Source: Candidatus Tritonobacter lacicola (lineage in GTDB: Bacteria > Auribacterota > Tritonobacteria > Tritonobacterales > Tritonobacteraceae). Taken from it: 64,000 nt of DNA. Positions 9,690 to 63,310 of the stretch are shown in pieces; the stretch's first letter is position 1, and each line of letters begins with the position of its first letter. The translations under genes were made by a program, and so were the position numbers. The DNA lies in contig JAVCDC010000020.1 of the NCBI GenBank assembly GCA_030765135.1, positions 10,916-74,915 on the forward strand, given 5' to 3'. Under the pieces are notes generated by a model. It was not told the DNA's origin. It made no database searches and saw nothing but the letters and a program-made list of their open reading frames with translations.

Positions 9690-9729
9690 ATAGAAATGTG
9701 ATTGCCTGGAAAGGCAATCACATTTCTAT
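9690..9729. terminator. Perfect 17-bp AT-rich hairpin between tRNA-Thr and the convergent rpoN stop; probable bidirectional terminator
   Basis: atagaaatgtgattgcc (9690-9706), loop tggaaa, ggcaatcacatttctat (9713-9729). The rpoN stop codon abuts at 9729-9731. Confidence 0.45.
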
Positions 9730-11144
9730 CAGTACTGCTTCCTGAGGTTCGAGGGAAGGATCTTCAGGTTGTTCCGGTACTTCGCCACCGTCCGGCGGGC
9801 CAGCCGAATCCCCTTCCGCGCCAGAATGTCGACAATCCCCTGGTCGCTCAAGGGTTTCCTGTGGTCCTCTTTCTCTATCAGCCTCGCGATGGCATTCTTC
9901 AAGTTCCTGGATGAAACCGCCTCCCCCTCGTCGGTCATCAGGCCGGATGAGAAGAAGAACTTCAGCTCCAGCAGCCCCTGCGGGGTCTGGATGTACTTGT
10001 TGGCTATCGCCCGGCTGACGGTCGATTCGCTTATGTTCAACGAACTCGCGATATCACCCAGAGTCAGCGGGCGAAGACGTGAGATTCCATCATCGAGAAA
10101 ATCCCTCTGCTCCTGGACTATCTTTTCGGCAATGCGGTAAATCGTCTTCTGCCTCAGCGCTATGTTCTTGATAAACCACTTTCCGCCCCTCACCTTATCC
10201 TGGATATACTTCTTCGTCCCCGGGTCGAGTCGGCCGGCGGCCATCAGCCCGCGGTAGAAGCTGCTGATCCTCAAATGCGGGACCCTTTCGTCGTTGAGGA
10301 TGACATCATACCCATCGTCTGTCTTCTCCAGAAAGATGTCCGGGCTGATATAAAAAGACGGATCGCCTCCGAAGAGGCGGCCCGGCTTGGGCTCGAGGGA
10401 GGCTATGAAGTGGGCCGCCTGCTGCACCTGCGACAAAGGCCTTTTAAGGGCATGGGATATCCTCGGGTATTTCTTGCGAGCCAGCTCGTCAAGGAAATCG
10501 CGCACGATTATATGGGGCAGGGAACCCTGCTTGCCCAGGCGCATCAGCTGTATCAGGAGGCACTCCCTGAGGTCCCTCGCGCCCACGCCTACCGGATGAA
10601 AGCTCTGCACCTTTTCGAGGACTACCTGGACCTCGGACTCCGGGCAACCCGCCATGCCGGCGAGCTCTTCGACGGTGGACCTCAGGTAACCGTTGTCGTC
10701 TATATTGCCTATGATTATTTCCCCTATCATCTTTTCCTGTTCGCCAGTCGCCGTTATAGAGAGCTGGGCGAGGAGGTGGTCCTGGAGAGACTCCGGGCGG
10801 GTGATCATCGTCTCCATGAACCTCCTCTTCTCCTCGTCCTCCCGGGTGTACTTCCTGAATGACCCGCTCTGGCGGAAGTACTCCCGCCATTCGTCGTCGA
10901 GCTCGGATAAATGGGCGAACTCCTCGTCGAAATCCTTGTCCGGCGCCTCGTCGCCGTCCCCGGTCTCTCCTGCCGACTCCGTCGCCATCGTCTCCTCAAG
11001 GATAGGGTTGGCGGCCATCTCCTGGCTGACCAGCATCCTGAGGTCCATGAGGGGCATCTGCAGCATCTTGATCGCCTGCTGCATCTGTGGAGACAGTACG
11101 AGTGTCTGCGTCTGCTTGAGAATCTGTTCGAACTTAAGCGCCAT
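9729..11144 (-). CDS. rpoN: RNA polymerase sigma-54 factor
   Basis: N-terminal activator-interaction region MALKFEQILKQTQTLVLSPQMQQAIKMLQMPLMDL. Core-binding and DNA-binding regions. C-terminal RpoN box ARRTVAKYR. 471 aa. Confidence 0.92.
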   Translation of the reverse strand: MALKFEQILKQTQTLVLSPQMQQAIKMLQMPLMDLRMLVSQEMAANPILEETMATESAGETGDGDEAPDKDFDEEFAHLSELDDEWREYFRQSGSFRKYTREDEEKRRFMETMITRPESLQDHLLAQLSITATGEQEKMIGEIIIGNIDDNGYLRSTVEELAGMAGCPESEVQVVLEKVQSFHPVGVGARDLRECLLIQLMRLGKQGSLPHIIVRDFLDELARKKYPRISHALKRPLSQVQQAAHFIASLEPKPGRLFGGDPSFYISPDIFLEKTDDGYDVILNDERVPHLRISSFYRGLMAAGRLDPGTKKYIQDKVRGGKWFIKNIALRQKTIYRIAEKIVQEQRDFLDDGISRLRPLTLGDIASSLNISESTVSRAIANKYIQTPQGLLELKFFFSSGLMTDEGEAVSSRNLKNAIARLIEKEDHRKPLSDQGIVDILARKGIRLARRTVAKYRNNLKILPSNLRKQY

Positions 11145-11244: not shown

Positions 11245-11548
11245 TATCTCGTGAAGCGTGAAGCGAATAAAAAGATACAGGATGCAAGATGCAGGATTTA
11301 TATTTTTCGTCCCTCGTCCAGAGCTTGTCCTGACGTAGATCCTGTCGAAGATCCTGAGCTTGCCGAAGGGTGCACTTCGACTACGCTCAGTATAAACTCC
11401 GCCGCAGGAAACATTCGTCTTCTCTTTGTGCCTTCGTGTCTTGGTGGCAGCTTATTTGTATATTCTTATATTTTTCTGTTTTTTGTTTCTTGCATCTTGT
11501 TTCTATTTTTTCCGTTTCACGTTTAACGTTCAACATTTCACGTCTTCT
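11245..11548. repeat. Mosaic of short AT-rich sequence modules in the rpoN / MBL-hydrolase divergent spacer; the same modules recur in at least six other intergenic regions
   Basis: gtgaagcgtgaagcgaa (11252-11268) is the reverse complement of 37497-37513. gatacaggatgcaagatgcaggat (11275-11298) matches the reverse complement of tatcctgtatcctgcatcttg (40331-40351). ctttgtgccttcgtgtcttggtggc (11421-11445) matches the reverse complement of gccactaagacactaaggcacaaag (24916-24940). cttgtttctattttttccgtttcacgttt (11495-11523) matches 40444-40472. Confidence 0.6.
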
Positions 11549-11637
11549 CGGTTAAAGATTTCCATGTTTTCATATTTCAATACTTCACTGTATTTCCAAT
11601 CGGCTCCGTTATATAATCGCCGGGACTGGAGACACCG

Positions 11638-12498: not shown

Positions 12499-12607
12499 AA
12501 AAAATTGTTGGACAAAATACGGGGGAATCAATTATAGTTTTTCAACGAAGTTTCCGACATATTTATAGACCGGCGTTAACCGGTAATCAACGAGGAGGAA
12601 TACCTCA

Positions 12608-14449
12608 ATGGAAGAAAAAAATCACACGGATAAGAGCGGGGCTTTAAAGGGCGAGTTCGACAGCGTGCGGGATTTTCCCGAGGAGACGCTCTGCCCAAGC
12701 TGCGGAAAGTTCGTCGGCGCCTACGAGAAATGCCCCTACTGCGGCGCGACGCTTAAAAAGAGGATGGCCCTGGCGATATTCAAGCGGGGGTGCCTCGTCA
12801 TGTCCGTCGTCGGCCTGATCGCGCTGTGGTACGCCGCCGTGATGATGGAGCCGGAGCTCATAACCATCGGCGAGATCGGCCCGACTTACAACAAGGGGAT
12901 ATTCAGGGTCAAGGGGATCGTCGACAAGGTAAAAATCAACCCCGACGCTTTCTTCAAGGTACAGTTCCACGTCGACGACGGGACGGGTAAGATCAAGCTC
13001 CAGACGGGTGACCTGGAGAAGCTCGAGCTGATGAATAAGGTTCCAAATATCGGAGACGAGGTCGAGGCGATAGGCGAGGTCTCCCTCTCCGCACAGTTCG
13101 GCACGTCAATGAACCTGAAAGCGCCCGGCAGGATGAAGATGATCAGGAAAGAGGTCCAGACCGTAAAGATAGGCGATATCGACGACGAGGACGTCGGGCA
13201 GATGTACGCGCTGCACGGCGAGGTTGTGAGCGTCAGCGAGTATCCATACGGAACGCTGGTTATGCTGGGGGACGAGACGGGCTTCCATGAAATTACCATC
13301 TCATCCTACCAGATGGAACAGCTCCCCGACGCCGAAGCGGTGATGACGCCGGGAACCGAGCTCGACATAGTCGTCCTCGTCGGCTCGTACAGGGACGCGC
13401 TGCAGATCAAGCCCCGCACGCCCCAGGATGTACAGGTGTCCGGCGAGGACACGATAGAGACCTCGAAGATACCGAAGAAAATGGTTAAGAAGGGCTATGC
13501 GAAGGCTGATATCGGCTCGCTGAAAGCGTCCGACAAGGGCAAGAAGGTGCAGGTCAAAGGTAAGATCTCGGGCGTCAAGAAGTTCAACAAGATGACCAAG
13601 ATCACACTCACCGACGGCACCGGCTCCGTGGACGTCACCCTCTGGGACAGCCAGTTCGCCGACTACCCCAACAAGGCGTCCGTCCTGAGAGAGGGGAGCG
13701 AGGTAATCGTCTTCGGCAAGGTGGACGAATACCAGGGGACCGTCCAGTTAAAGCCCGGGGACAAGAGCGACCTCGAACCGGTGAAGAAGGACGCCCCGCC
13801 AAAGAAGAAAGAGGAGAAAAAGCCTGAAGCGCCGAAGCCGGAGCCGACGAAGCCGCCGGCACCGAAGCCCGCGCCAACCAAAGCGCCGACGAAACCCGAG
13901 CCGACGAAGCCGCCGGCACCTAAGCCCGCAGCAACCAAAGCGGAGACGAAGCCCGAGCCCACAAAACCGCCGGCAGCGAAGCCGACTCCAGCTCAAACGG
14001 AGGCAAAGGTCGAACCAACTAAGGCGGCGGAGCCACCTGAGAAGAAGCCCGAGGCAACAAAGCCCCCGGCGACGAAGCCTGAAGCGACGGAGACCGAGGC
14101 TCCCACCAAGAAAAAAGAGCCCAAGGCGGAAGCGCCAAAGAAACCCTCCATCACCTTCACTCCACTGAAGATCGGGGAGATCACGATGGAAAAGGACGGG
14201 ACATTCGTTGAGATAAAGGGCGAGGTCGCCGGGTCGCGCGAGTTCTCGAAGGGCCTCAAGCTCGAGGTAAAAGACGACTCGGGAACGATAGACGTTGTCC
14301 TCTGGACCAATCTCCTGGAAAAGCTGACGGACACGGACAAGCTCACGAAGGACGGCGCAAAGCTCTCCGTCAAGGGCAAGGTAGGGTCATTCAGGGAAGA
14401 GATGCAGCTGACGCCGAAGTATCCCAACCAGATAAAGCTGTCTGATTAA
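12608..14449 (+). CDS. Membrane-anchored protein: N-terminal zinc ribbon, one TM helix, three OB-fold (tRNA_anti-codon-like) nucleic-acid-binding-type domains separated by a Pro/Lys/Thr-rich low-complexity linker
   Basis: CPSCGKF...CPYCG zinc ribbon. Hydrophobic segment LVMSVVGLIALWYAAVMM. Three repeats of the pattern G.VDV.LW...G..V...GKV..Y.G..QL. Linker KPEPTKPPAPKPAPTKAPTKPEPTKPPAPKPAATKAETKPEPTKPPAAKP. Confidence 0.55.
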   Translation: MEEKNHTDKSGALKGEFDSVRDFPEETLCPSCGKFVGAYEKCPYCGATLKKRMALAIFKRGCLVMSVVGLIALWYAAVMMEPELITIGEIGPTYNKGIFRVKGIVDKVKINPDAFFKVQFHVDDGTGKIKLQTGDLEKLELMNKVPNIGDEVEAIGEVSLSAQFGTSMNLKAPGRMKMIRKEVQTVKIGDIDDEDVGQMYALHGEVVSVSEYPYGTLVMLGDETGFHEITISSYQMEQLPDAEAVMTPGTELDIVVLVGSYRDALQIKPRTPQDVQVSGEDTIETSKIPKKMVKKGYAKADIGSLKASDKGKKVQVKGKISGVKKFNKMTKITLTDGTGSVDVTLWDSQFADYPNKASVLREGSEVIVFGKVDEYQGTVQLKPGDKSDLEPVKKDAPPKKKEEKKPEAPKPEPTKPPAPKPAPTKAPTKPEPTKPPAPKPAATKAETKPEPTKPPAAKPTPAQTEAKVEPTKAAEPPEKKPEATKPPATKPEATETEAPTKKKEPKAEAPKKPSITFTPLKIGEITMEKDGTFVEIKGEVAGSREFSKGLKLEVKDDSGTIDVVLWTNLLEKLTDTDKLTKDGAKLSVKGKVGSFREEMQLTPKYPNQIKLSD

Positions 14450-14487
14450 TAAAATTTTTCTTAGAAAAATTTTATAAGGAGAAACAA

Positions 14488-15834
14488 ATGGAAATGGCAC
14501 TTGTTATCCTGTTCTACATAATCCTCGGAACGCTGATCGGGTGCTTCTTCTCGCTCATACCCGGCCTCCACATCTACAACGTCGCGGGTATGATCATCGT
14601 CTTCTGGCTCGGCTACCAGGGCGTCATACCCGGCTACGCCATGCCGGCCTTCTTCATGTCCCTCATAGTGGCGTTCTCCATCATCAACACTGTCCCATCG
14701 ATGTTCCTGGGAGCACCGGACGAGTCTGCCGTCTTCGTTATGCTGCCGGGCCAGAAATACATGATGGACGGGCGGGGCTTCGAGGCGGCGGCGCTGACCG
14801 GCGTCGGCGGCCTGACAGGCATTACCGTGCTCGTCCTCATGACCCCCTTCCTGTACAATGTTCTCCCCTCCGTCAATAAGCTCATCGGCGGGATGCGCTC
14901 CTACTGGATCATGGCCCTGGTCATCACCTACATGCTCATGAGCGAGTGGCCAAAGGGGACGGGTATGGGCAAGAAGACGGTCCTCGGCAAGATATGGAAC
15001 GCGTGGCAGAACCTCGCGGCCGGCATCTTCACATTCATCCTCTCGGCCATCCTGGGCTTCATCGTCCTCAACAGGACATTCGTCCCAAAGGAGGTCGCCT
15101 TCCAGAACATCATGCCGGCCTTCGTGGGCCTATTCGCCGTCTCAAGCATAATCTCGTGCCTGATATCGAAGCAGGACATCCCGAAGCAGCACATCGGCAA
15201 ATCCATAGACCTCGACCCCAAGCTGATGGGCCTGGGGACATTCTCCGGCGTGCTGGGAGGCGGCATAGCCGCCTTCTTCCCGGGCGTAACCGGGGGAATA
15301 GGCGGCCTCCTGGCGGGGCACGCGACCGCCCAAAGAGACGACAGGCTCTTCGTCATCTCCCAGGGGGTATCCAAGTCCGTCTATTACATCGGGGCTTTCA
15401 TGCTCTTCTTCGTCCTGGCCTTCGGGGCGCACGGGACCGGACCCCTGCGACGCGGGGGGATGGCCATGATTCTCACGCCCATCGTCCAGCCCATGTCCGG
15501 CCAGGACTACGTCATCATCGTGGCAACGGTCCTTATCGGCGGGGCACTCTCATTCTTCTTCCTTCTGTGGTCCTCCAGGTGGATAATCTGGCTCATATCG
15601 AAGATCGACTACAGGATCATAAACTGGGTATCCTTGGTCCTCATCCTGGCCATCGTTATCGGTTTCACCGGCATGTGGGGCCTCTTCCTGATGGCCGTCG
15701 CGACGTTCATCGGTCTGATCCCTATCATGTTCGGCTGCAGGAGGAGCAACTGCATGAGCATCCTTCTCGTCCCAATCTGCCTGAGCATGGCGGGGGTGGG
15801 CGATACAATAGTCAAGTTCATGGGACTTTCTTGA
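14488..15834 (+). CDS. TctA-family (DUF112) membrane permease-like protein
   Basis: Polytopic membrane protein of 448 aa. Contains the two signature G-x3-G-x2-PG motifs of TctA/DUF112 (GTLIGCFFSLIPGL and GVLGGGIAAFFPGVTGG). Confidence 0.6.
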   Translation: MEMALVILFYIILGTLIGCFFSLIPGLHIYNVAGMIIVFWLGYQGVIPGYAMPAFFMSLIVAFSIINTVPSMFLGAPDESAVFVMLPGQKYMMDGRGFEAAALTGVGGLTGITVLVLMTPFLYNVLPSVNKLIGGMRSYWIMALVITYMLMSEWPKGTGMGKKTVLGKIWNAWQNLAAGIFTFILSAILGFIVLNRTFVPKEVAFQNIMPAFVGLFAVSSIISCLISKQDIPKQHIGKSIDLDPKLMGLGTFSGVLGGGIAAFFPGVTGGIGGLLAGHATAQRDDRLFVISQGVSKSVYYIGAFMLFFVLAFGAHGTGPLRRGGMAMILTPIVQPMSGQDYVIIVATVLIGGALSFFFLLWSSRWIIWLISKIDYRIINWVSLVLILAIVIGFTGMWGLFLMAVATFIGLIPIMFGCRRSNCMSILLVPICLSMAGVGDTIVKFMGLS

Positions 15835-15847
15835 GGGGAGAGATAGT

Positions 15848-16924
15848 ATGAAAGGATTGACGCATTTCATGAGCGGGGTGGCCCTCTCGACGTTTCTCCA
15901 GGCGCCCGTCAGCATGTGCTGGGAGGAGAGGTCTTTCATCCTCGTCCTGGGCGGGCTGTTCGGCATCATGCCCGACACGCTCGATTTCAAGGTCGGGCAA
16001 TTCTTCTCGAAGGTAGATATCGAGGTTGAATGCGACCCGAACGAGCCGGACCCCCAGAAGATGGCCGAGCAGATCGGCATGGCCATGGAAAAGGCCTACG
16101 AAACGGGCAAGCTGGTCAAGTGCCAGCTCTACCCGATGAGGCTGGGAGTCGACCTTTGGCGGCAGTACGTCATCAAGTTCGACGGCGAGACCAACGAAGT
16201 CGTCGTAATCATAAACGAAATCGTCACCACCTCCCAGAAACCCTACGCCGGCACGGCGCCGAAGGAGAACAGGATCGGCAAGTACAGGGTTAAGTGTAAG
16301 ATGCTCGAGACCCACGGCAGGCCATCCGTGGTCGACATCATGAGCGGCCCGCAGTATGGCTTCAAGAGGGCCGGCGACAGGGTCGAGGTCGAGTTCCTCC
16401 CATGGCACAGGACCTGGAGCCACAGCTACGTCCTGGGCTTCATCCTGGCCCTCCCCGTCTGGCTCATAGCCTCGCTCGTTACGAGCTGGTCTATCGGCTG
16501 GCTTTACGGCCTCGTGGCCTTCCTCGGTTTCGCCATACACATCACCGAGGACCTCACCGGCCACATGGGAGGTTCGCTCCTCTGGCCGTTCCTGAAGGAG
16601 CGGACGAACGGTCTCTGTCTCTTCAAGGCGAGCAACCCTCACGCCAACTTCTCGATCGATTACGCGAGCCTCTGCATCATCGTCTGGAACATCAACAGGC
16701 TGGGCCCCCCGCACCGCGTCTTCCACCTCCCGGCGCCGTTTTACTTCTTCGCTACGCTCATCATCCCGCTCGGGATCTATTTCAGCATCGCCAAGGTGTT
16801 CGGCAAGAAGGGGAAGAAGCAGAAGGTGGGGGTGATCAGCGCCGAGGACGCCCTCGCCGCCGACGCCGCCGCCAAGAACGAGGAGATGAGGTACGAGCTC
16901 GATGACATCGCCGTCAGCGACTGA
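15848..16924 (+). CDS. Membrane-bound metal-dependent hydrolase-like protein (DUF457/YdjM-like N-terminus) with a large inserted soluble domain
   Basis: The N-terminal sequence MKGLTHFMSGVALSTF is typical of DUF457, and the C-terminal TM segments carry a HITED motif. A roughly 150-aa hydrophilic insertion lies between the membrane segments. Confidence 0.4.
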   Translation: MKGLTHFMSGVALSTFLQAPVSMCWEERSFILVLGGLFGIMPDTLDFKVGQFFSKVDIEVECDPNEPDPQKMAEQIGMAMEKAYETGKLVKCQLYPMRLGVDLWRQYVIKFDGETNEVVVIINEIVTTSQKPYAGTAPKENRIGKYRVKCKMLETHGRPSVVDIMSGPQYGFKRAGDRVEVEFLPWHRTWSHSYVLGFILALPVWLIASLVTSWSIGWLYGLVAFLGFAIHITEDLTGHMGGSLLWPFLKERTNGLCLFKASNPHANFSIDYASLCIIVWNINRLGPPHRVFHLPAPFYFFATLIIPLGIYFSIAKVFGKKGKKQKVGVISAEDALAADAAAKNEEMRYELDDIAVSD

Positions 16925-16956
16925 TAATATAATCCGGCCTTCGGCCGGATTATATA

Positions 16957-17619
16957 TTAAAAGAGCCTTCTAGCGTAAGCGGGCTTGCCGGCGTAGAAAT
17001 CAAGTGGGTTCAGGGCCCCTCCCCCGTAGCCGTAGTTCCCCTCCGCGATAGCCTTCAGCGTAGTCACCGTCTTCGGCGAGATCGAGTCGACGATCCGAAT
17101 GCCGAGATAATCCAGCATCCACGAAGGGGCGTGTATCACCTCGAAGTGGAGCATGTCCCGTATCCCCGTCGGAAGGCCCTCGGCGTTACCCGTGTGGCCG
17201 ATCCTGCCGATCACGTCACAGGCCTTCACGTACTCCCCGACCCGGAGAGGCGGTTTCGCGTCCAGGTGGGCGTACAGGGTGTAATAGTCGTTCAGGTGAT
17301 CGATGATGAGGGTGAAGCCGTAGCCCTCCGTCAGCGTGCCGTTCATCTCGTTATAAACGACGATGCCCGGGCTGACGGCCCTGACAGGTGTCCCCCTCCG
17401 GGCAAGGAGGTCTATACCCTGGTGTTTCTTCTCCCCCCCCCTCCGTGGCGCGCCGAACTCGCCCTCCGGCCGCCTGACCGGCCCGTCAACGGGCAGCCTG
17501 GAGAAGCGTATAACCGGAAGAGTACTCCTCTTTGCCGGTTCAACGCCGTCCCTGCCGCAGCCTGCAAGGGTAAAGATAAAAAATAATAATAAAGCGGTGA
17601 AATACATAAAATTTTTCAA
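16957..17619 (-). CDS. M23-family metallopeptidase (lysostaphin/LytM-like) with lipoprotein signal peptide
   Basis: Signal peptide with lipobox LAGC. M23 zinc-ligand motifs HQGIDL and TLYAHLDA, plus GHTGNAEG...HFEV. Confidence 0.85.
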   Translation of the reverse strand: MKNFMYFTALLLFFIFTLAGCGRDGVEPAKRSTLPVIRFSRLPVDGPVRRPEGEFGAPRRGGEKKHQGIDLLARRGTPVRAVSPGIVVYNEMNGTLTEGYGFTLIIDHLNDYYTLYAHLDAKPPLRVGEYVKACDVIGRIGHTGNAEGLPTGIRDMLHFEVIHAPSWMLDYLGIRIVDSISPKTVTTLKAIAEGNYGYGGGALNPLDFYAGKPAYARRLF

Positions 17620-17628
17620 AGAAAAATT

Positions 17629-17868
17629 TTATTTAGAGAGGAATTTAACAAGCTCGACTATGATTTCGTCGACGAGGTCTGCTATGATTTTGACCTTCCG
17701 CGCCCTGAGCCACTTATTCCCCCGCGGGCTCAGGCAGAGGACGGAGGCGGGGAGCCTTCCCAGGTCGGAGGACTTGTGCCCCCTGAACGATTTGCGCCGG
17801 GAATCGCCGAACGGAAACTCCGATTGTGAATACCTCTTTTTCCCCGGAGTCTTGCTCTTAGCACTCAT
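17629..17868 (-). CDS. Small basic hypothetical protein (79 aa) immediately upstream of the M23 peptidase gene on the same strand
   Basis: ORF only; 9-nt gap to the next gene on the same strand. No recognisable domain. Confidence 0.3.
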   Translation of the reverse strand: MSAKSKTPGKKRYSQSEFPFGDSRRKSFRGHKSSDLGRLPASVLCLSPRGNKWLRARKVKIIADLVDEIIVELVKFLSK

Positions 17869-21015: not shown

Positions 21016-21018
21016 GAT

Positions 21019-21140
21019 AAATTTGCTCGCTTCGCTCGCAAATTTATTACGGAACCACGGATTAAACTGATTAGACAGATTATCTTGGAGTATTATAAAA
21101 GTTTTTTTTAATCAGTCTAATCCGTAAAATCCGCGGTTAA
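21019..21140 (+). terminator. Two consecutive hairpin elements between the aldehyde dehydrogenase and the PduS-like gene (putative attenuator or partial terminator inside the BMC operon)
   Basis: Hairpin 1: aaatttgc - tcgcttcgctc - gcaaattt (21019-21045). Hairpin 2: about 30-bp imperfect arms acggattaaactgattagacagattat / ataatcagtctaatccgtaaaatccgcgg (21058-21136), followed by ttaatatttt. Both belong to families seen elsewhere in the window. Confidence 0.45.
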
Positions 21141-21181
21141 TATTTTGGTCCGGTGCGCGAAGAGAACGGTGAGGAACGGGA

Positions 21182-24884: not shown

Positions 24885-24890
24885 CAAGCA

Positions 24891-25012
24891 CTTATCCCGG
24901 CTTCGCCGGGGACTTTTGCCACTAAGACACTAAGGCACAAAGAATAATTATTATTAGCTTTTCTTCGTGTCTTCGTGCCTTTGTGGCTAGTCTAAATAAC
25001 AAATTCTTATAC
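24891..25012. repeat. Dispersed repeat of about 120 bp, copy 1 (copy 2 at 38549-38670), about 90 percent identical
   Basis: cttatcccggcttcgccggggactttTgccactaagacacTaaggcacaaagaataattattattagcttttcttcgtGtcttcgTgcctttgtggctagtCtaaataacaaatTc; capitals mark differences from copy 2. It starts with a GC hairpin cccggc-ttc-gccggg and has an AT-rich core taattattattagc. Confidence 0.7.
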
Positions 25013-25723
25013 GATCAAATTACTAGAGGTTACGAAGGGTTACAAAACTTGAAGATACACAAGATTACGGCCCTTCTTGAGAATGAATACGGTCGTCCGA
25101 AACAGCGGCAGCGCACGGGCCTCCTGGACCAGCTCGTCTCGACCATCCTGTCACAGAACACGACCGACACCAACAGGGACAGGGCATTCGGCAACCTTAA
25201 AAAGAAATTTCCCGACCTCATGTCCATCGCCTCCTCATCCCCGGAGGCAATAGAGAAAGCAATACGGGTCGGCGGCCTCGCGCGAATTAAAAGCCGCCGG
25301 ATATACTCGATTATCCTGTCGTTGAAGCGCTCGAAAGCGGGCTCCGATCTCGGGCTCGGGAAAGGAATGGACAGGGACGCGGTCAGGAAGCATCTCATGT
25401 CCTTCGAGGGCGTGGGAAGAAAGACGGCTGACTGCGTCCTTCTCTTCGGGATGGGACGGGACGCCTTCCCGGTGGACACCCACGTCCACCGCGTTTCGCG
25501 GCGCCTCGGCCTGGTTCGCCATCGCATATCCCCCGAGGAGGCTGCCGGAGTCCTGGAAGGGGAAGTCCCCCCGGGACATCATTACAGCCTGCACATCAAC
25601 CTGATCCGCCACGGCCGGAGGATCTGCCGCCCCAGAAACCCAAAATGCGCCGAATGCTGCCTCCGCCGCCTCTGTGAGAATAACCCCACACTTACGTGTG
25701 GGGAATGGATACCACACGCGTGA
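24983..25723 (+). CDS. nth: Endonuclease III-like base-excision DNA glycosylase (HhH-GPD superfamily with C-terminal 4Fe-4S cluster loop)
   Basis: LDQLVSTILSQNTTD; helix-hairpin-helix FEGVGRKTADCVLLFG with the catalytic Asp region (PVDTHVHRVSRRLGL). C-terminal CRPRNPKCAECCLRRLC (C-x6-C-x2-C-x5-C). The annotated GTG start at 24983 lies inside the 120-bp repeat; an in-frame TTG at 25049 is a more plausible start. Confidence 0.8.
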   Translation: MASLNNKFLYDQITRGYEGLQNLKIHKITALLENEYGRPKQRQRTGLLDQLVSTILSQNTTDTNRDRAFGNLKKKFPDLMSIASSSPEAIEKAIRVGGLARIKSRRIYSIILSLKRSKAGSDLGLGKGMDRDAVRKHLMSFEGVGRKTADCVLLFGMGRDAFPVDTHVHRVSRRLGLVRHRISPEEAAGVLEGEVPPGHHYSLHINLIRHGRRICRPRNPKCAECCLRRLCENNPTLTCGEWIPHA

Positions 25724-29889: not shown

Positions 29890-31371
29890 TTATCGCCATC
29901 CATAATCCTTATCACCCAGCATCCCCGGATGTGTGCCATAAATGCCGCCGCTATCCTTGTAAAAACCCAAAGTTCCCGATGAGGGCGTTGGCGCCCAATC
30001 CGGCTGGAAGTTGACTGCAGAGATTAACGGTGTCGGGGTAACCGTTGCCGTAGGTGTGATAGTCGGTGTTGGCGTGACTGTGGATGTAGGTGTCGCCGTG
30101 GGCGTATTCGTAATGGTAGGCGTCTGAGTGGGCGTGTTGGTGATCGTGGGTGTCTGAGTGGGTGTGTTAGTTATAGTTGGTGTTTGTGTCGGTGTATTGG
30201 TAATGGTCGGCGTCTGCGTTGGCGTATTTGTTGTTGCGTTCGTAGGCGTGTTGGAAAGAATTGCGTACAACCTGTTATCCTTTGATCCAAAATAGATCGT
30301 TATGTCATCACCTATAGCAGGTCCTGATTGTACGCGGTTTGCAGTCGCGTAGCTCCACATAAAGGAACCATCAAAGCTAAAGCCGTAAAGGCGGTTGTCA
30401 TTATTGCCCGCGTAAACGCTCCCGTCACTGCCTATAGCTGGGGCTGAATCGAAATCCTCTCCGCCCACATAGCTCCATAACAAGGAGCAGTTGGAGTTCA
30501 GGCTGTAAAATCTGTTGTCGCGAGAGCCAACATAAATTATACCGCCTGAACCTATGGCCGGTGAGCATTCGACCGTCCCTCCTGTTTCATAGCTCCATAA
30601 TAGGGAGCCTTTCGAGTTAATGCTGTAGAGACGGTTGTCCCGAGATCCTGCGTAAACCGTCCCGTTCTCAGCTATGGCCGGTGAAGAGTTTGCATCCCCT
30701 CCGGTTATATAAGTCCAAAACAAGGAGCCAGCAGAGTTAAGGTTGTAGATGGTGTTGTCCCGACAGGCCGTACAAACTGTACCATCCGGACCTATTGCCG
30801 GTGATCCGTAAATGTAGTCCTGGAATGCATAGGTCCACGACAAGGAGCCATTAGAATTTAGGCTGTAGAGGCGATGGTCCCAAGAGCCCAAGTAAACCCT
30901 TCCCTCGGCACCTATGGTTGGCGAGGAGTAATCGAGCGGGCCTAAGGTTCTATAGCTCCACGATAAGGATCCATCGGAGTTAATACTATAGAGCCTGTTG
31001 TCCGAGGATCCCGTGTAAATTCTTCCGTCACTACCTATAGCTGGTGATGATCGGACACTACCACCGCTCACATAACTCCACGATAAGGATCCATCGGAGT
31101 TAATACTATAGAGCCTGTTGTCCGAGGATCCCGTGTAAATCTTCCCAGCCGTGCCTATGGCGGGTGAACTCTGATAAATCTCATATCCGGTTGCATAGGT
31201 CCACTTCAGAGCCAGCCCAGAAGCGAGAGGACCCTGATGCTGGCTCAGGCCCGTATGCCTCGCGTCGTGATGGAACATCGGCCAGGGGCCGGAATCAAGC
31301 TGGGCATTGGAGTTGAAGACAAAAGAAAAAAACATAACAAGCATAACCGCCACATGTCTTTTTACAGCCAT
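29890..31371 (-). CDS. Secreted PQQ-like beta-propeller repeat protein with C-terminal Thr-Pro-rich repeat linker (TNTPTQTPTI x4)
   Basis: Signal peptide. About 8 repeats of the pattern YSxNSDGSLSWSY..GG.V.SSPAIG.DG.IY.GS.DNRLY (40-aa blades). Low-complexity TPTQTPTITN repeats. Confidence 0.7.
   Translation of the reverse strand: MAVKRHVAVMLVMFFSFVFNSNAQLDSGPWPMFHHDARHTGLSQHQGPLASGLALKWTYATGYEIYQSSPAIGTAGKIYTGSSDNRLYSINSDGSLSWSYVSGGSVRSSPAIGSDGRIYTGSSDNRLYSINSDGSLSWSYRTLGPLDYSSPTIGAEGRVYLGSWDHRLYSLNSNGSLSWTYAFQDYIYGSPAIGPDGTVCTACRDNTIYNLNSAGSLFWTYITGGDANSSPAIAENGTVYAGSRDNRLYSINSKGSLLWSYETGGTVECSPAIGSGGIIYVGSRDNRFYSLNSNCSLLWSYVGGEDFDSAPAIGSDGSVYAGNNDNRLYGFSFDGSFMWSYATANRVQSGPAIGDDITIYFGSKDNRLYAILSNTPTNATTNTPTQTPTITNTPTQTPTITNTPTQTPTITNTPTQTPTITNTPTATPTSTVTPTPTITPTATVTPTPLISAVNFQPDWAPTPSSGTLGFYKDSGGIYGTHPGMLGDKDYGWR
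30955..31140. repeat. Exact 66-bp duplication at 120-bp spacing inside the propeller gene (recent blade duplication)
   Basis: ctccacgataaggatccatcggagttaatactatagagcctgttgtccgaggatcccgtgtaaat occurs identically at 30955-31020 and 31075-31140. Confidence 0.85.
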
Positions 31372-32754: not shown

Positions 32755-32918
32755 AGTGGGTCGAAGGGCAAGATGCAGGATACACGAAGATGCTGGTTCT
32801 GAATCTTGATAATCAGCATAATCCAGTAAATCTGCGTCCTATAAAGAGGCAACGCTTCACCGAGGATCAGCTCATGCTCCCATGCTCTTCATAGGAGCAT
32901 GAGGCCGTGTAACATAAG

Positions 32919-33815: not shown

Positions 33816-33858
33816 GACAACATTTAGTAACCCATAGTAACCGTTAGTAACTTGTAGT
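33816..33858 (+). repeat. Four tandem tagtaac(c) direct repeats at about 10-11-bp spacing in the etfB-etfA spacer
   Basis: tttagtaacccatagtaaccgttagtaacttgtagtaaccctg. A similar gtaac array lies at 25880-25930 (gtagtaaccattagtaacagatcgaagagcgtagcaacctttcgtaactg). Confidence 0.6.
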
Positions 33859-33923
33859 AACCCTGTTAAAAAGTATATGAAAAGCTTTGAGAGTGAAATG
33901 AACGGTTTTCATCGAGAGGGCAC

Positions 33924-36916: not shown

Positions 36917-36951
36917 TGGTATCGCCTGCGGCGACAATTCAAATTGGAGAC

Positions 36952-37002
36952 TGCAAAATGCAGAGTGCAAAGATACTTCTACTTTGCACTCTGCATTTTG
37001 CA
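36952..37002. terminator. Perfect 21-bp stem hairpin with 9-nt loop between convergent genes
   Basis: tgcaaaatgcagagtgcaaag (36952-36972), loop atacttcta, ctttgcactctgcattttgca (36982-37002). Ends 12 nt before the stop of the minus-strand gene at 37014. Confidence 0.6.
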
Positions 37003-37283: not shown

Positions 37284-37524
37284 ATCTATCCTCCTTTTTA
37301 GAATACTGGATAACAAGGAATACAAGAAACATCAAAGAAAATCAAGAATTAACCACGAACAGGGTGAAAATATAGAAATAAGTAGCCACGAAGGCACAAA
37401 GAAAAAACGACTATTCAATACGGTCAGGTTGTTTATCTCTTGTCTTCAGTCTGTGGTCCTTGATTTTCATCCTGCATCCCGCATCTTGTTTCTTTTCTTC
37501 GCTTCACGCTTCACGAACGACGAC

Positions 37525-38436
37525 CTACGATTGCTGAACCGCGGGAACCGGTGGCAGTTCCTTTATATCCACCGCTTTCCTTGTTATGCCCGCAGACAGG
37601 TTATCCCGAACGAAGCGGAGGTTTCTCGATAGAGCTGCCCGCGCCCTCCCCTCGTCCTCGGCGCCGATCCAGTCGGGGATGAACTCCAGTGTAATACACC
37701 CCCCGAAACCGTCTGAGCCGAGCATTTTTAAGAAAGGGCCCATCGGCAGCACCCCCTCATCAAGCGAGACGTGCTCTCTCCCGTCGAAGTTCGAGAGATG
37801 AATGTGGACGATCCTGCGCCCCAGCATGCGGTAAACCTCGAAGAGGTCATACCCGCCGGTGGCCATGTGCGTCGTGTCCAGGACAACGTTTTCGAAGGCG
37901 AGAAAGTCCTCCCATCCGTTAACGGGAAAGACGGGGGCACTGACAAGGGAGAGAAGTCGATAAAACAGGCGGGACCGCTTGATATAGTAGAAGGCGTTTA
38001 GATTAAGCCTCGCCCCCAGGCGCCCCAGGGGCTTCATGGCGCAGGGCATGTTCTCCACCGCGATCGTGACACCCGTTCGCGCCTGAAGGGCCGGGACCCC
38101 GTCCCGCATCCAGCGGATATAGTCGTCCTCGGTAAGGCAGGGCATGTGCAGTACCAGAACATCCGCGCCGGTCTCCTCGGCTATGGATACCGCCATCTCT
38201 GCCTTCACAACCGAGCTCTTCGGCCATCCGGGCGGCGTCAGGAAGAAGAACGGGGCGTGAACCGCGCGGATCGGAATCCCCTCCCTTCCTGAGAGGTCAT
38301 TGAGATAACGTGTGTGAACGGTATCAACACTATCATCGATGATAAGCTCTATACCATCGTAGCCGACATCACGCGCGATGCCGAAGATGCGGTCAAGCCC
38401 GTAGTAGCGAAGCGATCCCGTGGAAAGAAGTATCAT
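37525..38436 (-). CDS. Sugar-phosphate isomerase/epimerase (xylose-isomerase-like TIM barrel) family protein
   Basis: MILLSTGSLRYYGLDRIFGIARDVGYDGIELI...HAPF...VLHMP... matches the AP_endonuc_2-type TIM barrel metal-ligand pattern. Confidence 0.7.
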   Translation of the reverse strand: MILLSTGSLRYYGLDRIFGIARDVGYDGIELIIDDSVDTVHTRYLNDLSGREGIPIRAVHAPFFFLTPPGWPKSSVVKAEMAVSIAEETGADVLVLHMPCLTEDDYIRWMRDGVPALQARTGVTIAVENMPCAMKPLGRLGARLNLNAFYYIKRSRLFYRLLSLVSAPVFPVNGWEDFLAFENVVLDTTHMATGGYDLFEVYRMLGRRIVHIHLSNFDGREHVSLDEGVLPMGPFLKMLGSDGFGGCITLEFIPDWIGAEDEGRARAALSRNLRFVRDNLSAGITRKAVDIKELPPVPAVQQS

Positions 38437-38548
38437 GGTATTTCCAATCAGCGTGTCTTATAGCTTCCAGCAAGCGCCCACCACGCCCGGTACGCGGGAA
38501 GAACAGCGGATACAACCCGGAACCCGGAATCCCCGGACAGGAGATGTA

Positions 38549-38670
38549 CTTATCCCGGCTTCGCCGGGGACTTTCGCCACTAAGACACCAAGGCACAAAG
38601 AATAATTATTATTAGCTTTTCTTCGTATCTTCGGGCCTTTGTGGCTAGTTTAAATAACAAATCCCTATAC
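38549..38670. repeat. Dispersed repeat of about 120 bp, copy 2 (copy 1 at 24891-25012)
   Basis: See copy 1; about 110 of 120 positions identical by eye. Lies between the TIM-barrel gene start and the PilZ-like gene stop. Confidence 0.7.
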
Positions 38671-38758
38671 CATCGAGTTAAAATAATCACGGCAGGAACT
38701 GATTAAAGACAGTTCCCTGCGCTGCGTCCGGGTTTTATAGCACAGGATCAGAAAAAAA

Positions 38759-40211: not shown

Positions 40212-40558
40212 GTGATTTCAAAATGAAGATTGCAAAGTGCAAAAATCATATTACCTTTTGCCAATTTTACCAATTTTATAATCTTTCGTGCCTTTGTATC
40301 TTCGTGGCTGCACTCTTTCTGAATTTTTTGTATCCTGTATCCTGCATCTTGTTTCTTGTTTCCGTTTCACGTCTCTCGTCTCCTTGGTTCATCATTTCCA
40401 TATTTTCATACTTCCTTATTTCCAGCATTGAGTATCTTGTCTCTTGTTTCTATTTTTTCGTTTCACGTTTCACGTTCTTTCCTGTTTCCCATATATCCCT
40501 TGTAATCCCTGACCTTCCCTGATATTCCCTGCTCTTCCCTGATATAATAAGACCTGTC
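40212..40558. promoter_or_regulatory. 347-bp AT-rich divergent control region upstream of uvrA built from tandem copies of the recurring intergenic modules
   Basis: tatcctgtatcctgcatcttgtttcttgtttccgtttcacgtctc (40331-40375) and cttgtttctattttttcgtttcacgtttcacg (40444-40475). ccctgat-type direct repeats at 40495-40550 and tgcaaagtgcaaaa at 40228-40241. Confidence 0.5.
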
Positions 40559-43408
40559 ATGAAGGACTCCATCAAGATACGGGGCGCGAGCCAGCACAAC
40601 CTCAAGAAAATCGACATAACAATACCCCGCGACAAGCTGGTGGTCATAACCGGCCTGAGCGGCTCCGGCAAATCCTCCCTCGCATTCGACACTCTCTACG
40701 CGGAGGGGCAGCGCAAGTACGTCGAGAGCCTCTCGGCCTACGCCCGGCAGTTCCTCGATCAGATGCAGAAGCCTGAAGTCGAATCGATAGAGGGGCTCTC
40801 GCCGGCCATCGCGATAGAGCAGAGGACCGCCGGCTCCAACCCGCGGTCAACCGTCGGGACGACGACGGAGATATACGATTACCTACGCCTGCTCTACGCG
40901 AGGATAGGCAAGCCCCACTGCCACAGGTGCGGCAGGCCCATAACCCGGCAGACGATCCAGGAGATCGTGGACAGCATCATGTCCCTGCCGCAGAAGACGA
41001 AGGTCGCGATACTCGCACCGATGGTGAGGGGGAAGAAGGGCGAGCACCGGAAGGTCATCGACAGGATAGCCAGGGAGGGGTTCGTCAGGGCGCGCGTCGA
41101 CGGCGGGATCGTCGACCTGTCGGAGCCCGTAAAACTGGACAAGAACAAGAGGCACTCCATCGAGGCTGTCGTCGACCGCCTGATCGTCCATCCCGATTCG
41201 AAAGAGCGGATGACGGAATCCGTCGAGGCGGCGCTGGCCACGGGCGAGGGGCTCATGATACTTTCCGCCGGGGACGACGACATAATTTACAGCGAGATGA
41301 ACGCGTGCCCCGAGTGCAGCATCAGCTACGAGGAGTTCACACCCCGGTCATTTTCGTTCAACAGCCCGTACGGCGCCTGCGAACGGTGCCACGGGCTGGG
41401 GACGATGTTCACGATGGACGAATCCCTCATCCTACCGGACAGGTCCAGGTCCATCCGCAAAGGGGCCATCAGGCCGTGGCGCTACGGAGGCAGGTCCCTC
41501 GTCCGGTACTACAACAGGCTCCTCCGGAGCCTGGCGAAGCACTACGGCTTCGACCTCGACACGCCGTTCAAAGAGATCGGGAAGAAAGTCCGTGACATCA
41601 TCCTCCACGGCTCCGGGGACGAGCCCATCCGGATGTATTTCTGGAGAGGTGGAAGCATCCACTACTATTACAAGCCCTTCGAGGGCGTCATCCCGAACCT
41701 CGAGAGGAGGATGAGGGAGACACGGAGCGACAGGGTTAAGAAAAGGCTCTTCCAGTTCATGAACTATCAGAAGTGCACGAAGTGCGGCGGCGCCAGGCTC
41801 AAACCCCAGTCACTCTCCGTCACCCTGAACGGAATGAACATCTCCGGGATAACGGCCATGTCCATAGAGAAGGCGGCCGAGGCTTTTGCAGATCTGAAGC
41901 TAGGCAAAAAGGACGCAGCGATCGCCAAGGAGGCGATGAAGGAGATCCGACTTCGCCTGGATTTTCTCAAGGCGGTCGGCCTGGGGTACCTCACGCTGGA
42001 CAGGGCCAGCGGAACGCTCTCCGGCGGCGAGGCCCAGAGGATCCGCCTTGCCACACAGATAGGCTCCGGGCTCGTGGGCGTCGTCTACATCCTCGACGAG
42101 CCTTCCATCGGCCTCCACCAGAGGGACAACGCCAGGCTACTGGAGACCCTGATGTCGCTGCGCGACCTCGGCAACACCGTTATCGTGGTGGAGCACGACG
42201 AGTCGACGATACGGAGCGCCGACTACATCATCGACCTCGGGCCGGGCGCGGGCGAGGCGGGCGGGCACGTGGTCGTACAGGGCCCCCTCCGCTCCCTTTT
42301 AGCCTGTGAGCGGTCCCTCACCGGCAAGTACCTGAGGGGTGAACTTGTCATACAGGTGCCGGAGAAACGCCGTCCGGTCAAGGCCGCCAAATTCATCATC
42401 ATCAAGGGAGCAAGGGAGAACAACCTCAAGAACATAGACGTCAGGATCCCCCTGGGCCTCTTCTGCTGCATAACGGGCGTCTCCGGGTCGGGAAAGAGCA
42501 CTCTCCTGGACGAGATACTCAGGAAGGCCCTTTTTAAAAAGTTCTACGGCGGTAAGGAGAGACCCGGCGCGCACGACAGGATACTGGGTACCGGGAACAT
42601 AGACAAGGTGATAGTCATCGACCAGTCCCCGATAGGGCGGACCCCCCGCTCAAACCCGGCGACCTACACGGGTATCTTCGACCACATCCGGAAGCTCTAC
42701 ACGAAGCTCCCGGAGGCGCGAACGCGCGGATACAAGCCCGGGCGCTTCTCGTTCAACGTAAAGGGCGGCAGGTGCGAGGCGTGCCGCGGGGACGGGATCA
42801 TCAAGATAGAGATGCACTTCCTACCGGACGTCTACGTCGAGTGCGAGGCGTGCAAGGGGAAACGCTACAACCGCGAGACACTGGAGATCAGGTTCAGGGG
42901 AAAGAGCATAGCCGACGTCCTGGACATGTCGGTCAACGAGGCCCTTGAGGTTTTCAGGAACATTCCCTCCCTCAGGTCGAAGCTCCGGACCATCGCAGAC
43001 GTCGGCCTCGGTTACATAAAGCTGGGCCAGCCGGCGACGACGCTATCCGGCGGAGAGGCGCAGAGGGTGAAGCTCTCGGCGGAGCTCGGGAAGAGGAGCA
43101 CGGGCAGGACGCTCTATATCCTCGACGAGCCGACGACGGGCCTGCACTTCGCGGACATCGACAACCTCCTCAGAGTCCTTCAGAAGCTCACCGACGCGGG
43201 AAACAGCGTCCTGGTGATCGAGCACAACCTGGAAGTGATAAAGACGGCGGACTACATAATTGACCTGGGGCCGGAGGGAGGCGACGGGGGCGGCCGCATC
43301 GTGGCGGAGGGCACGCCCGACGAGGTGATGCGGTCCCGAAAATCCCACACAGGTCGATTCCTCAGGAACAAGAATTCAGCTCACTTCCCGCCTGCAGGGG
43401 GGAAGTGA
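40559..43408 (+). CDS. uvrA: Excinuclease ABC subunit A
   Basis: Two ABC ATPase modules ([14 protein letters not shown] and [14 protein letters not shown]), signature LSGGE (LSGGEAQR) twice, zinc-finger Cys clusters. 949 aa. Confidence 0.97.
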
Positions 43409-49761: not shown

Positions 49762-49969
49762 TTACTTTCTCATTGCAGAATTCAAAGTGCATAAATTAGC
49801 TCACTTCGTTCGCTAATTTATTAATTCTCCGACTTCGTCGGAGTCTTATGATGTTCCGGAGCAGCAAGAAAAATGGAATGCCTTATCCTGTGAATCCTGT
49901 TAATCCCGTCAAATTTATTCACTTTTTTCGTTTCACGTTTCACGATGACCATTTTGCATTTTGCACTCT

Positions 49970-53218: not shown

Positions 53219-53281
53219 GTGGGCGATGGGGATATCGCTGTTGATTCCTTCGCAACTTAGTTGGAATTATTGAGTTAGCGA

Positions 53282-56200: not shown

Positions 56201-56497
56201 TACATCAATGCCTTCGGTGAGCATCCGGTGAAAGCGACGGTTGTTCTCTATCAGACTTGCTGTTTCCGTTCTGATAATTTGGCGTATAGCATCATCAATC
56301 GCAGACGGAGGGATATCGGGGTTGATATTTTCAAGCGCAATTCGCAAACGCTCTTCAAGCACAACCTGATCGTAGCGCTCGCGCTCAACTCCAAGCTCGT
56401 CCGGACTGATGAAAGGTCCAAATTTCACTGCATAGCCAAGGTTCTCGAACCAGGCAAGGGCTATTTGTTCCAATTGGTTTTCGGTTATACCGCTCAT
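53282..56497 (-). CDS. hsdR: Type I restriction enzyme R subunit
   Basis: HsdR N-terminal domain ([22 protein letters not shown]); SF2 helicase motifs [15 protein letters not shown] and [12 protein letters not shown]. 1071 aa. Confidence 0.95.

Positions 56498-61734: not shown

Positions 61735-63310
<1,576 letters not shown>

Follow-up and report, generated by a model that had tools for sequence, protein, structure and literature searches.

Short tandem repeats and miniature IS91-family elements in the intergenic DNA of Candidatus Tritonobacter lacicola

The AT-rich intergenic spacers of Candidatus Tritonobacter lacicola (Auribacterota), an uncultured bacterium of an Antarctic lake, share a small vocabulary of recurring words, and we consider here what this vocabulary is, using a stretch of 64,000 nt from contig JAVCDC010000020.1 (hereafter the window). 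In our judgement, with a probability of roughly 0.7, the shared words are fast-changing short tandem repeats together with copies of a miniature element of the IS91 family of insertion sequences (IS), and not a new regulatory code. A sequence-only reading of the window had listed five word families, modules a to e, and had proposed that they are promoter-associated elements, elements resembling repetitive extragenic palindromes (REP), or binding-site arrays for an abundant protein. Its basic observation holds: all five recur where it had placed them or a few bases away, and they do form dispersed families of non-coding elements. Nor is this a matter of chance, since 111 12-mers occur in at least two of the 37 spacers against 5.5 in dinucleotide shuffles (maximum 14); the corresponding figures for 14-mers are 75 and 0.35, and spacer-versus-spacer BLAST returns the same pairs.

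The RpoN encoded in the window is 100% identical to a protein listed by NCBI for Candidatus Tritonobacter lacicola. The DNA of the stretch is also present in ENA, JGI and Logan assemblies, Ace Lake samples among them, and six independent assemblies from these sources give the spacer between the NTPase gene and uvrA identically; because they agree at every base, assembly artefact and adapter contamination can be excluded. Modules a, b and c, further heptamer tracts and two of the hairpin families described below (D9 and CGGATTA) are also present in L137, an 11.5-kb locus (55% G+C) that lies outside the window, in the same genome or one nearly identical to it. An Rfam search of the whole window gave two tRNAs as its sole matches at the gathering score.

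Tandem repeats of the AT-rich spacers

The modules are not arbitrary blocks but degenerate head-to-tail repeats of 7-10 nt, mostly heptamers; modules a, b and c are successive segments of heptamer tracts whose units drift. Tandem Repeats Finder (TRF) places arrays of period 7-11 in nearly all AT-rich spacers; arrays of period 6-12 cover 12.5% of this DNA, compared with 1.0% elsewhere in the window and 0.5% in shuffled spacers, and period 7 is the commonest (10 of 26 arrays). These coverage figures were taken from TRF because a stricter array detector undercounts degenerate arrays; with the latter, near-perfect arrays are ~25-fold denser in spacers, eight of nine having period 7. Spacer autocorrelation peaks at lags of 7, 8, 9 and 21 nt (z 4.4-4.8), while coding DNA has a 3-nt period only. 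Both the tandem nature of the modules and their enrichment in spacers are clear from these counts.

Three spacers serve as our main examples. Spacer A (493 nt) lies between the divergent rpoN gene (RpoN, 9729-11144, minus strand) and a gene for a metallo-beta-lactamase-fold protein (plus strand), and holds 11245-11548; spacer B spans 37326-37524; and spacer C, 40212-40558, runs from the NTPase gene to uvrA. Their repeats are the following.

11490-11549, plus strand, spacer A: heptamer tract (modules b and a) at the core of the finding, TGCATCT TGTTTCT ... CGTTTCA CGTTTAA CGTTCAA CATTTCA CGTCTTC
11250-11297, minus strand, spacer A: heptamer tract on the rpoN side (modules b and c), reading ATCCTGC ATCTTGC ATCCTGT ... 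CGCTTCA CGCTTCA on the minus strand
11420-11448, plus strand, spacer A: solitary 8-mer block (module d), TTCTCTTTGTGCC TTCGTGTC TTGGTGGC
11558-11617, plus strand, spacer A: 8-mer array before the metallo-beta-lactamase-fold gene, ATTTCCAT GTTTTCAT ATTTCAAT ACTTCACT then TATATAAT
37385-37403, minus strand, spacer B: solitary 8-mer block in reverse orientation
37440-37515, plus strand, spacer B: continuous tract in 7-nt phase, ~11 units, passing from TTGTCTT to CAGTCTG and on through TGCATCC and TGTTTCT to two CGCTTCA
40282-40482, plus strand, spacer C: composite of an 8-mer block (40282-40308), a heptamer tract (40329-40383), a ATTTCCAT 8-mer array (40394-40423) and a second heptamer tract (40433-40482)
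40497-40548, plus strand, before uvrA: 10-mer array of five (T)TCCCTGNNN units, the end of which, TGATATAAT, is an extended -10 sequence lying 10 nt upstream of the uvrA ATG

Spacers A and C share one collinear composite of ~170 nt, made up of the 8-mer block, a T-rich stretch, a heptamer tract and the ATTTCCAT 8-mer array. Their homology is established by local alignment, in which 121 of 173 columns are identical and the score is 134, against 61 +/- 7.7 in shuffles (~9 standard deviations). The tract at 11490-11549 belongs to this 173-column match; its identity to 40435-40477 is 91% (44 nt) and that to 40336-40372 is 87% (39 nt). On the other side of spacer A, 11250-11297 matches 37469-37516 in reverse orientation, with 88% identity over 49 nt, and has no self-structure (z -0.5). 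The 8-mer block of module d occurs seven times in the window, namely in A, B and C and in both arms of two miniature elements; 11420-11448 has the sequence of one hairpin arm of such an element.

Folding of the DNA distinguishes two structural classes, direct pyrimidine-rich tracts and inverted pairs of arrays, to which the following features, and one further array cluster, belong or are compared.

40325-40470: direct tract of 146 nt, -2.8 kcal/mol, z -1.2
36951-37002: inverted pair with a perfect 21-bp stem, -25 kcal/mol, z -8.8; a hairpin between convergent genes whose arms are three TGCAAAG-type heptamers (module e)
24888-25015: inverted pair in copy a of the module-d element, -21.9 kcal/mol, z -5.1
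1264-1356: hairpin element with arms of CGGATTA-type 9-mers, with copies at 21056-21147 and 32803-32845 (one arm); inverted pairs of these elements have z -5.5 and -4.3
49791-49822, plus strand: AT-rich hairpin family ATAAATTAGCTCACTTCGYTCGCNAATTTAT (D9), z -5.9, with copies at 21017, 43645 and 45751 and a reversed copy at 44366
49884-49966, plus strand: array cluster in the spacer of an opp-type operon, with three ATCCTGTNA 9-mers, 2.3 units of CGTTTCA and 2.3 units of CATTTTG

Within the last of these, 22 nt (49923-49944) are identical to 40453-40474. The ATAAATTAGCTCACTTCGYTCGCNAATTTAT family was not among the five families first listed; a copy of it is found in L137, and the CGGATTA hairpin has copies both there and in the metagenome locus L190. 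Such hairpins may act incidentally as terminators or RNA stabilisers. Scans for consensus promoters and terminators gave counts at or below shuffle expectation, and only the gene-proximal -10 boxes were supported.

A miniature element of the IS91 family

Module d belongs to a miniature element that occurs twice in the window.

24888-25015, plus strand: copy a, in which a hairpin with arms of three 8-mers lies between a ter-like left end and an ori-like right end; CAAA and a GTTAC array come after it
38546-38673, plus strand: copy b, 92% identical to copy a, with right flank CGAG
33825-33863, plus strand: 10-mer array of four TAGTAACNNN units; the same array carries the element in the related locus L051

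The element measures ~129-133 nt. Its left end has a GC stem-loop, CCCGGCttcGCCGGG; the hairpin arm reads GCCAC TAAGACAC TAAGGCAC AAAGAA and is followed by the loop and the complement; the right end of the window copies is AAATAACAAATTCTTATACGAT, also written AAATAACAAATYCYTATACSAT. Comparison with relatives establishes that it has moved. At the orthologue of 38546, the relative L052 has an empty site, ggacaggagGtcgagttaaaa. In L051 a copy lies in the spacer between the genes for ETF-alpha and ETF-beta, with two mismatches in 129 nt (98%) while the flanking genes are 78-84% identical in DNA; the window has no copy of the element in this ETF spacer, and we read 33825-33863 as an empty, CTTG-rich target because the L051 array has the element inserted. 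Three element sites adjoin TAGTAAC(TTG) 10-mer arrays, rich in the target CTTG/CAAG, and GTTAC arrays adjoin the element at 25020-25043 and in L137. The form with the hairpin core is found at at least seven distinct sites: the two in the window and one each in L051, L089, L137, L190 and L194. In the long variant of the last two, the arms consist of GTGCC 8-mers and ATGGAAAT 8-mers, as in the arrays of A and C, and the 8-mer words of 11558-11617 form its hairpin arms.

The family assignment comes from the ends. In the window the ends are those at 24888-24913 and 24994-25015. At least 119 metagenome loci (L088-L206) from many environments share an invariant left end of 24 nt, ACTTATCCCGGCTTCGCCGGGGAC, and among the matches listed most of these loci continue into a leader of ~85 nt and an open reading frame (ORF) of 420-424 amino acids (aa). 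This ORF matches Pfam Y2_Tnp (113 bits) and Zn_Tnp_IS91 (82 bits), as well as the NCBIfam model NF033538, IS91 family transposase, with 247 bits against a cut-off of 125. By eye, the transposases of these loci vary at many positions in the N-terminal 60 residues. At least 25 full-length copies have both ends; they measure ~1.61 kb and end in ...AAATACAAATTCCTATRCNAT. In the 25 among the matches listed, the left end is identical over 24 nt and the right end is AAATA(A)CAAATTCCTATRCNAT, as in the miniature, and the right flank is CAAG in eight, CGAG in six, GAAC in two and another tetranucleotide in the rest. In full-length copies the left flank ends in GA, so that the left junction reads GAAC. 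The same pair of ends encloses cores of 30-157 nt in at least 16 distinct short forms; the right flank of the miniatures is CAAG in L051, L089, L090, L103 and L135, CGAG at 38674 and CAAA at 25016. The three aligned copies and the empty site in L052 reveal neither terminal inverted repeats nor a target-site duplication.

Members of the IS91 family lack inverted repeats and have an ori end on the right and a ter end on the left with a conserved GC-rich stem-loop (PMC3189936). IS801 targets GAAC, GGAC, CAAG and CGAC, and miniature IS801 derivatives in Pseudomonas syringae transpose when the transposase is supplied in trans (PMC3189936). Like IS91, IS801 and IS1294, the full-length relatives found here encode a Y2 (HUH) transposase with the IS91 zinc-binding domain; as in that family, inverted terminal repeats and target duplication are both absent, the ter end has a GC-rich stem-loop with GAAC before it in full-length relatives, the ori end lies beside tetranucleotides of the CAAG/CGAG/GAAC type, and short non-autonomous forms exist. 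The alignments therefore place the ~129-nt element in the IS91 family, and its mobilisation is presumably effected in trans by the Y2 transposase of a full-length copy. It does differ from its described relatives: whereas the P. syringae miniatures are one-ended right-end fragments (PMC3189936), the forms here keep both ends around a foreign core of 30-157 nt, and, unlike in the IS801 miniatures, the core in this lineage is a hairpin of tandem 8-mers, the window copies start with GCAC and GTAC instead of GAAC, and their mobilisation is presumed. Other copies with this core likewise have GCAC or GTAC. It is a guess on our part that the solitary 8-mer blocks in A, B and C are relics of miniature elements, or else the source of their core.

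Two other mobilisers were considered and set aside. An IS200/IS605-type reading (palindrome-associated transposable elements), suggested by the missing terminal repeats and target duplication, was dropped once the ends proved to be of the IS91 family. As for a REP-associated tyrosine transposase (RAYT), tblastn found no match in the window; the protein in L051 with Y1_Tnp and DnaA_C domains scores 70.6 bits against a cut-off of 80 (NF047646); and the flanks of its gene, and of the 60%-identical P0244 (from other samples, in a tight gene context), are without modules. The L051 gene itself (L051:2143-3147) encodes 334 aa with a RAYT-like Y1 domain and a C-terminal domain of DnaA; it has thousands of homologues, in the Planctomycetes-Verrucomicrobia-Chlamydiae (PVC) group and elsewhere, which are often tightly packed single genes, and there is no link to repeats here.

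Turnover between relatives and the origin of the words

Four syntenic loci from relatives were compared with the window; identity is that of a marker protein to its window counterpart, the marker in three of the four having the fold of apurinic/apyrimidinic (AP) endonuclease.

L007: marker RpoN, 78% identity
L051: marker AP-endonuclease-fold protein, 76% identity
L052: marker AP-endonuclease-fold protein, 95% identity
L053: marker AP-endonuclease-fold protein, 68% identity

At spacer A, L007 keeps both promoter-proximal ends, the ATTTCCAT array and TATATAAT included, so that 11558-11617 is the conserved, promoter-proximal part. The middle is made of other words: eight TCGTACA at the position of 11250-11297, CTGATTNCT, and seven TAGTCTT/TGGTCTT. 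The tract at 11490-11549 is not found in this orthologue. At spacer B, L052 has one CGCTTCA against two in the window, and three ATCTTGT that are new, and L051 has nine CAGGGAAGAG 10-mers where the window has heptamers. The AP-endonuclease-fold ORF of L051 (L051:10001-11008) reads into this array, and is called with 335 aa against 303 aa in the window (37525-38436). At spacer C, the central ~225 nt (40272-40496) are missing from L052 and L051, which have other short arrays there. Over 450 nt of this spacer the six assemblies, all from one population, do not differ, and variation appears only between species-level relatives. Every metagenome copy of spacer C also has a 50-aa ORF called within it (L001:2784-2936). 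The hairpin at 36951-37002 corresponds in L051 to a short, unexpanded version with attgcaa words and without the hairpin.

At the array before uvrA, L053 has a single unit, L052 has four, the window five and L051 seven, which means that local promoter sequence has expanded in place. A TATAAT box with an upstream TG (40540-40561) ends only 10 nt before the ATG; the uvrA mRNA would be leaderless or nearly so. At the other end of spacer C, the NTPase gene at 40211 lacks a Shine-Dalgarno sequence, and heptamers reach its start codon. Across these loci, then, units change as wholes and are replaced between relatives, as the alignments establish; this is the pattern that slippage with point mutation predicts, and the opposite of what would be expected of a conserved operator array. 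Judged from the same alignments, visible constraint lies only on the promoter-proximal 30-60 nt of each spacer.

We consider it likely that the vocabulary is repetitive, largely non-functional spacer DNA arising from three processes that would feed one another. Replication slippage would add and remove units of 7-10 nt, mostly heptamers, where they stand, and point mutation would then erode them, which would leave neighbouring units alike and drifting along the tract. The ~129-nt element, a non-autonomous rolling-circle derivative of the IS91 family, inserts beside tetranucleotides of the CAAG/CGAG/GAAC type, presumably with the Y2 transposase of a full-length copy acting in trans. Finally, larger pieces, such as the ~170-nt composite of A and C, would be copied between spacers by ectopic recombination or some other mobile step, with the outcome that words are common within the genome and orthologous spacers of relatives differ. 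We infer that replication slippage is the generator of the units and that most of this spacer DNA is without selected function. Ectopic copying, of the A/C composite and of the CAGGGAAGAG array, is likewise what we infer, in the case of the composite because no mobiliser for it was found: a search allowing up to three mismatches gave no IS ends beside the composite, the heptamer tracts or the solitary 8-mer blocks.

Several observations weigh against this explanation. Slippage alone fails to explain why a few words dominate one genome, and for the A/C composite, which has no recognisable IS ends, no mobiliser was found. No transposase gene of any kind is found in the 64-kb window, and no full-length IS91 copy is assignable to this genome; the copy in L107 (Ga0075114), from the same Ace Lake metagenome, sits on a 1-kb contig. 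The window copies begin with GCAC and GTAC where full-length copies have GAAC, and for this reason may now be immobile. Moreover, the ATTTCCAT array of the metallo-beta-lactamase-fold gene and the TTCCCTG array of uvrA, both promoter-proximal, are kept in relatives of 76-78% protein identity, and could be real operator arrays, and several arrays adjoin start codons without a Shine-Dalgarno sequence (40212-40245; L137:4545-4595).

The heptamers reach well beyond this lineage. An exact 21-mer of module a, TTTTYCGTTTCACGTTTMACG, occurs at 42 loci against ~1 expected by chance, in Chloroflexota, Acidobacteriota, Bacteroidota, Gemmatimonadota, Nitrospirota, Proteobacteria, Planctomycetota, Verrucomicrobiota and others. 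Often it forms part of a longer array and has an inverted GTGAAAC array as its partner, and these 8-kb loci contain many other heptamer words. A crude ORF call places ~32 of the 42 between genes, with flanking genes that are co-directional in nine cases (same/same), opposed in eight (opposite/opposite), convergent in seven and divergent in three. Read in another phase, the unit is GTTTCAC, the parS half-site; the centromere site parS, bound by ParB, is a 16-bp palindrome, TGTTNCACGTGAAACA. A parS reading was rejected, as the units here are direct repeats and not abutting inverted half-sites. In viral contigs, three tandem GTTTCAC units form 15 stretches, and two composition-matched permuted heptamers form 7 and 8. 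Any heptamer triplet is thus far above chance, and GTTTCAC only about twofold higher; as permuted triplets are about half as common, neither a parS half-site nor horizontal transfer was retained as the cause of the cross-phylum arrays. The literature searched gave no match to the CGTTTCA repeat. Heptanucleotide repeats are the most abundant class of 5-11 nt in prokaryotes and have been credited to slippage, so far as Mrazek et al. 2007 is summarised in PMC4679880.

Could the arrays instead be binding sites of an abundant nucleoid-associated or global regulatory protein, as the sequence-only reading had offered? We think this quite improbable. Their regular spacing and restriction to AT-rich spacers would suit it, as would the 10-nt period of the TAGTAAC and TTCCCTG arrays, which would set sites on one face of the helix, the two promoter-proximal arrays kept in relatives, and the precedent of Geobacter, where paired inverted arrays were read as IHF/HU sites (PMC2700814). 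However, about ten unrelated words would require as many proteins, the 7-nt period is off the helical repeat, and no candidate protein was identified. We found no positive support for it: orthologous spacers of relatives with 76-95% protein identity hold different words, their unit numbers vary freely, and permuted, composition-matched heptamer triplets are about half as common as that of GTTTCAC. An association with promoters fared no better. Judged by gene strands, divergent promoter spacers, in which most modules had been said to lie, make up 2 of ~11 module-bearing spacers, the others lying between tandem or convergent genes or within an operon; the arrays are the unconserved part of each spacer and the promoter-proximal sequence the conserved part; and the 42 loci of other phyla with the same CGTTTCA array show no preference of orientation or position. 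There is thus no preference for promoter spacers or for orientation on which a binding protein could be argued. Of the three earlier proposals, REP-like comes nearest, because some modules are small, hairpin-forming, non-autonomous and dispersed; what does not stand is the tie to REP and RAYT, as module d is a miniature of the IS91 family.

As module d is part of a miniature IS, perhaps all modules are mobile miniature elements, heptamer tracts included, comprising several families of miniature inverted-repeat transposable elements and their decayed relics, with slippage secondary. This we hold to be rather unlikely as a general account, though plausible for the hairpin families, of which CGGATTA and D9 each have several scattered copies. 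In L190 and L194 the long variant has ATGGAAAT arrays like those of A and C, a miniature form in L112 has ACAGGAT-type arms like 49884-49911, and the composite of C is present or absent as a block. Yet the heptamer tracts are not flanked by IS ends, close relatives differ by whole units within otherwise aligned sequence, the uvrA array arose where it stands, by growth from one promoter unit, and relatives hold other arrays at locus C and not a clean empty site. A role at the level of RNA is highly improbable in our estimation, whether as unstructured, pyrimidine-rich leaders or intercistronic elements bound by S1, Csp, CsrA-like proteins or Rho, or as hairpins that terminate or stabilise transcripts in the manner of REP. 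It would fit the direct tracts, which are nearly free of structure (146 nt, -2.8 kcal/mol) and in some cases reach start codons without a Shine-Dalgarno sequence, the very stable hairpins that inverted arrays form between convergent genes (36951-37002, z -8.8), and the TAACTGA precedent in Beggiatoaceae (PMC4679880). But most tracts lie upstream of conserved -10 boxes, themselves 10-30 nt from start codons, and so are probably not transcribed with the gene; their orientation to transcription is mixed, with spacer B and 49884-49966 antisense to A and C; and there is no Rfam match, nor is the sequence conserved in relatives.

It is also improbable, to our minds, that the tracts are an evolvable spacer code read by a lineage-specific protein or RNA-binding factor. 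If they were, ready-made arrays would reach new genes through insertions of the miniature IS91 element and through ectopic copying, and promoters, terminators or leaderless translation starts would be rewired there, and the functional core would be the ATTTCCAT and TTCCCTG arrays together with the tracts at start codons without a Shine-Dalgarno sequence.

Known repeats, significance and other features of the window

Under the explanation by slippage, IS91-type insertion and ectopic copying, the components are of known kinds: heptamer repeats of the slippage type, and an insertion sequence of the IS91 family together with its miniatures. The new points are that both are documented in Auribacterota, that miniature IS91 forms keep two ends around a hairpin core of tandem repeats, and that the turnover of spacers is concerted. 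The heptamer STRR repeats (short tandemly repeated repetitive sequences) of cyanobacteria are of a similar kind. As in the 5-11-nt simple sequence repeats of prokaryotes, to the extent that PMC4679880 summarises Mrazek et al. 2007, heptamers dominate here, are intergenic, change by whole units and are scattered across phyla. Unlike the repeats described in that summary, our arrays are short (2-5 units), degenerate and chained into drifting tracts of up to ~11 units, and words and word order are common to distant loci, with many inverted pairs.

In Geobacter metallireducens, paired inverted arrays of hepta-, octa- and nonanucleotides have been called 'putative global regulator binding sites' (PMC2700814). 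They resemble ours in having 3-5 tandem units, each of 7-9 nt, in many cases with a pair of arrays in inverted orientation at variable distance, in dozens of intergenic copies, with species-specific words and adjoining insertion sequences (PMC2700814). The words differ, however; turnover is seen here in relatives and one class is tied to an IS91-family element, whereas the function in Geobacter was conjectured (PMC2700814). Small, hairpin-forming intergenic repeats that occur as doublets (hairpins) and singlets, with possible side effects as terminators or stabilisers, recall REP and REPIN elements, but the ends here match the IS91 family (Y2) and not RAYT (Y1), and the window has no RAYT gene. 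The TAACTGA repeats of Beggiatoaceae are likewise direct heptamer repeats in 2-6 copies, often running up to start codons without a ribosome-binding site, and the same heptamer is found in distant phyla (PMC4679880); in contrast to that one dominant word, there are about ten words here, with no consistent position relative to start codons.

What follows for the reading of such genomes? About one eighth of the AT-rich spacer DNA is short tandem repeat, and several "conserved intergenic motifs" would be mobile or made by slippage, and so do not warrant annotation as regulatory motifs or small-RNA genes. Repeat arrays also cause spurious ORF calls and extensions. The repeats and the IS91-family element probably break metagenome assemblies, because many matches sit at contig ends. 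The ~1.6-kb IS91-family element with its invariant 24-nt ter end is widespread in many environments, and the set of two-ended miniature derivatives is a form not covered by PMC3189936. Orthologous spacers that keep their promoter-proximal ends while the filler is swapped for other words provide a clean case of fast, concerted non-coding turnover.

Several other features of the window were noted in passing. Between 12575-17677 and L007:3492-8545, a block of 5.1 kb is 94% identical; since the syntenic flanks are ~80% identical, this suggests recent recombination or transfer between the two species. An island of low G+C content (51968-63310; 40-49% against ~57%) carries a type I restriction-modification system with these genes.

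53282-56497: HsdR
58712-59977: HsdS
61712-63310: HsdM

A YhcG/DUF1016 nuclease gene (60514-61734) lies between HsdS and HsdM, and the island also has two unannotated ORFs, of 416 aa and 638 aa. At 60049-60390, inside or over a 112-aa ORF without a Pfam match in this island, five pairs of 11-nt direct repeats are built on ATCGGTNGAT/ACCGAT words, ~55-70 nt apart.

Repeats occur in coding DNA too. Seven tandem repeats of 120 nt (30086-31167), 67-89% identical to the reference copy, sit in a 493-aa ORF (29890-31371, minus strand), and the 40 aa that each encodes likely form a protein repeat domain; L051 likewise has long coding repeats, of 189-204 nt. At 13800-14100, a 15/57-nt repeat encodes a low-complexity stretch rich in lysine, proline, alanine and glutamate in a 613-aa OB-fold (tRNA_anti-codon) protein. 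Near-identical palindromes, ATAAAATTTTTCTTAGAAAAATTTTAT, stand at 14448-14475 and 17606-17633, each at a gene end, and are kept at orthologous places in L007; these are probably bidirectional terminators which, unlike the tandem arrays, are under constraint.

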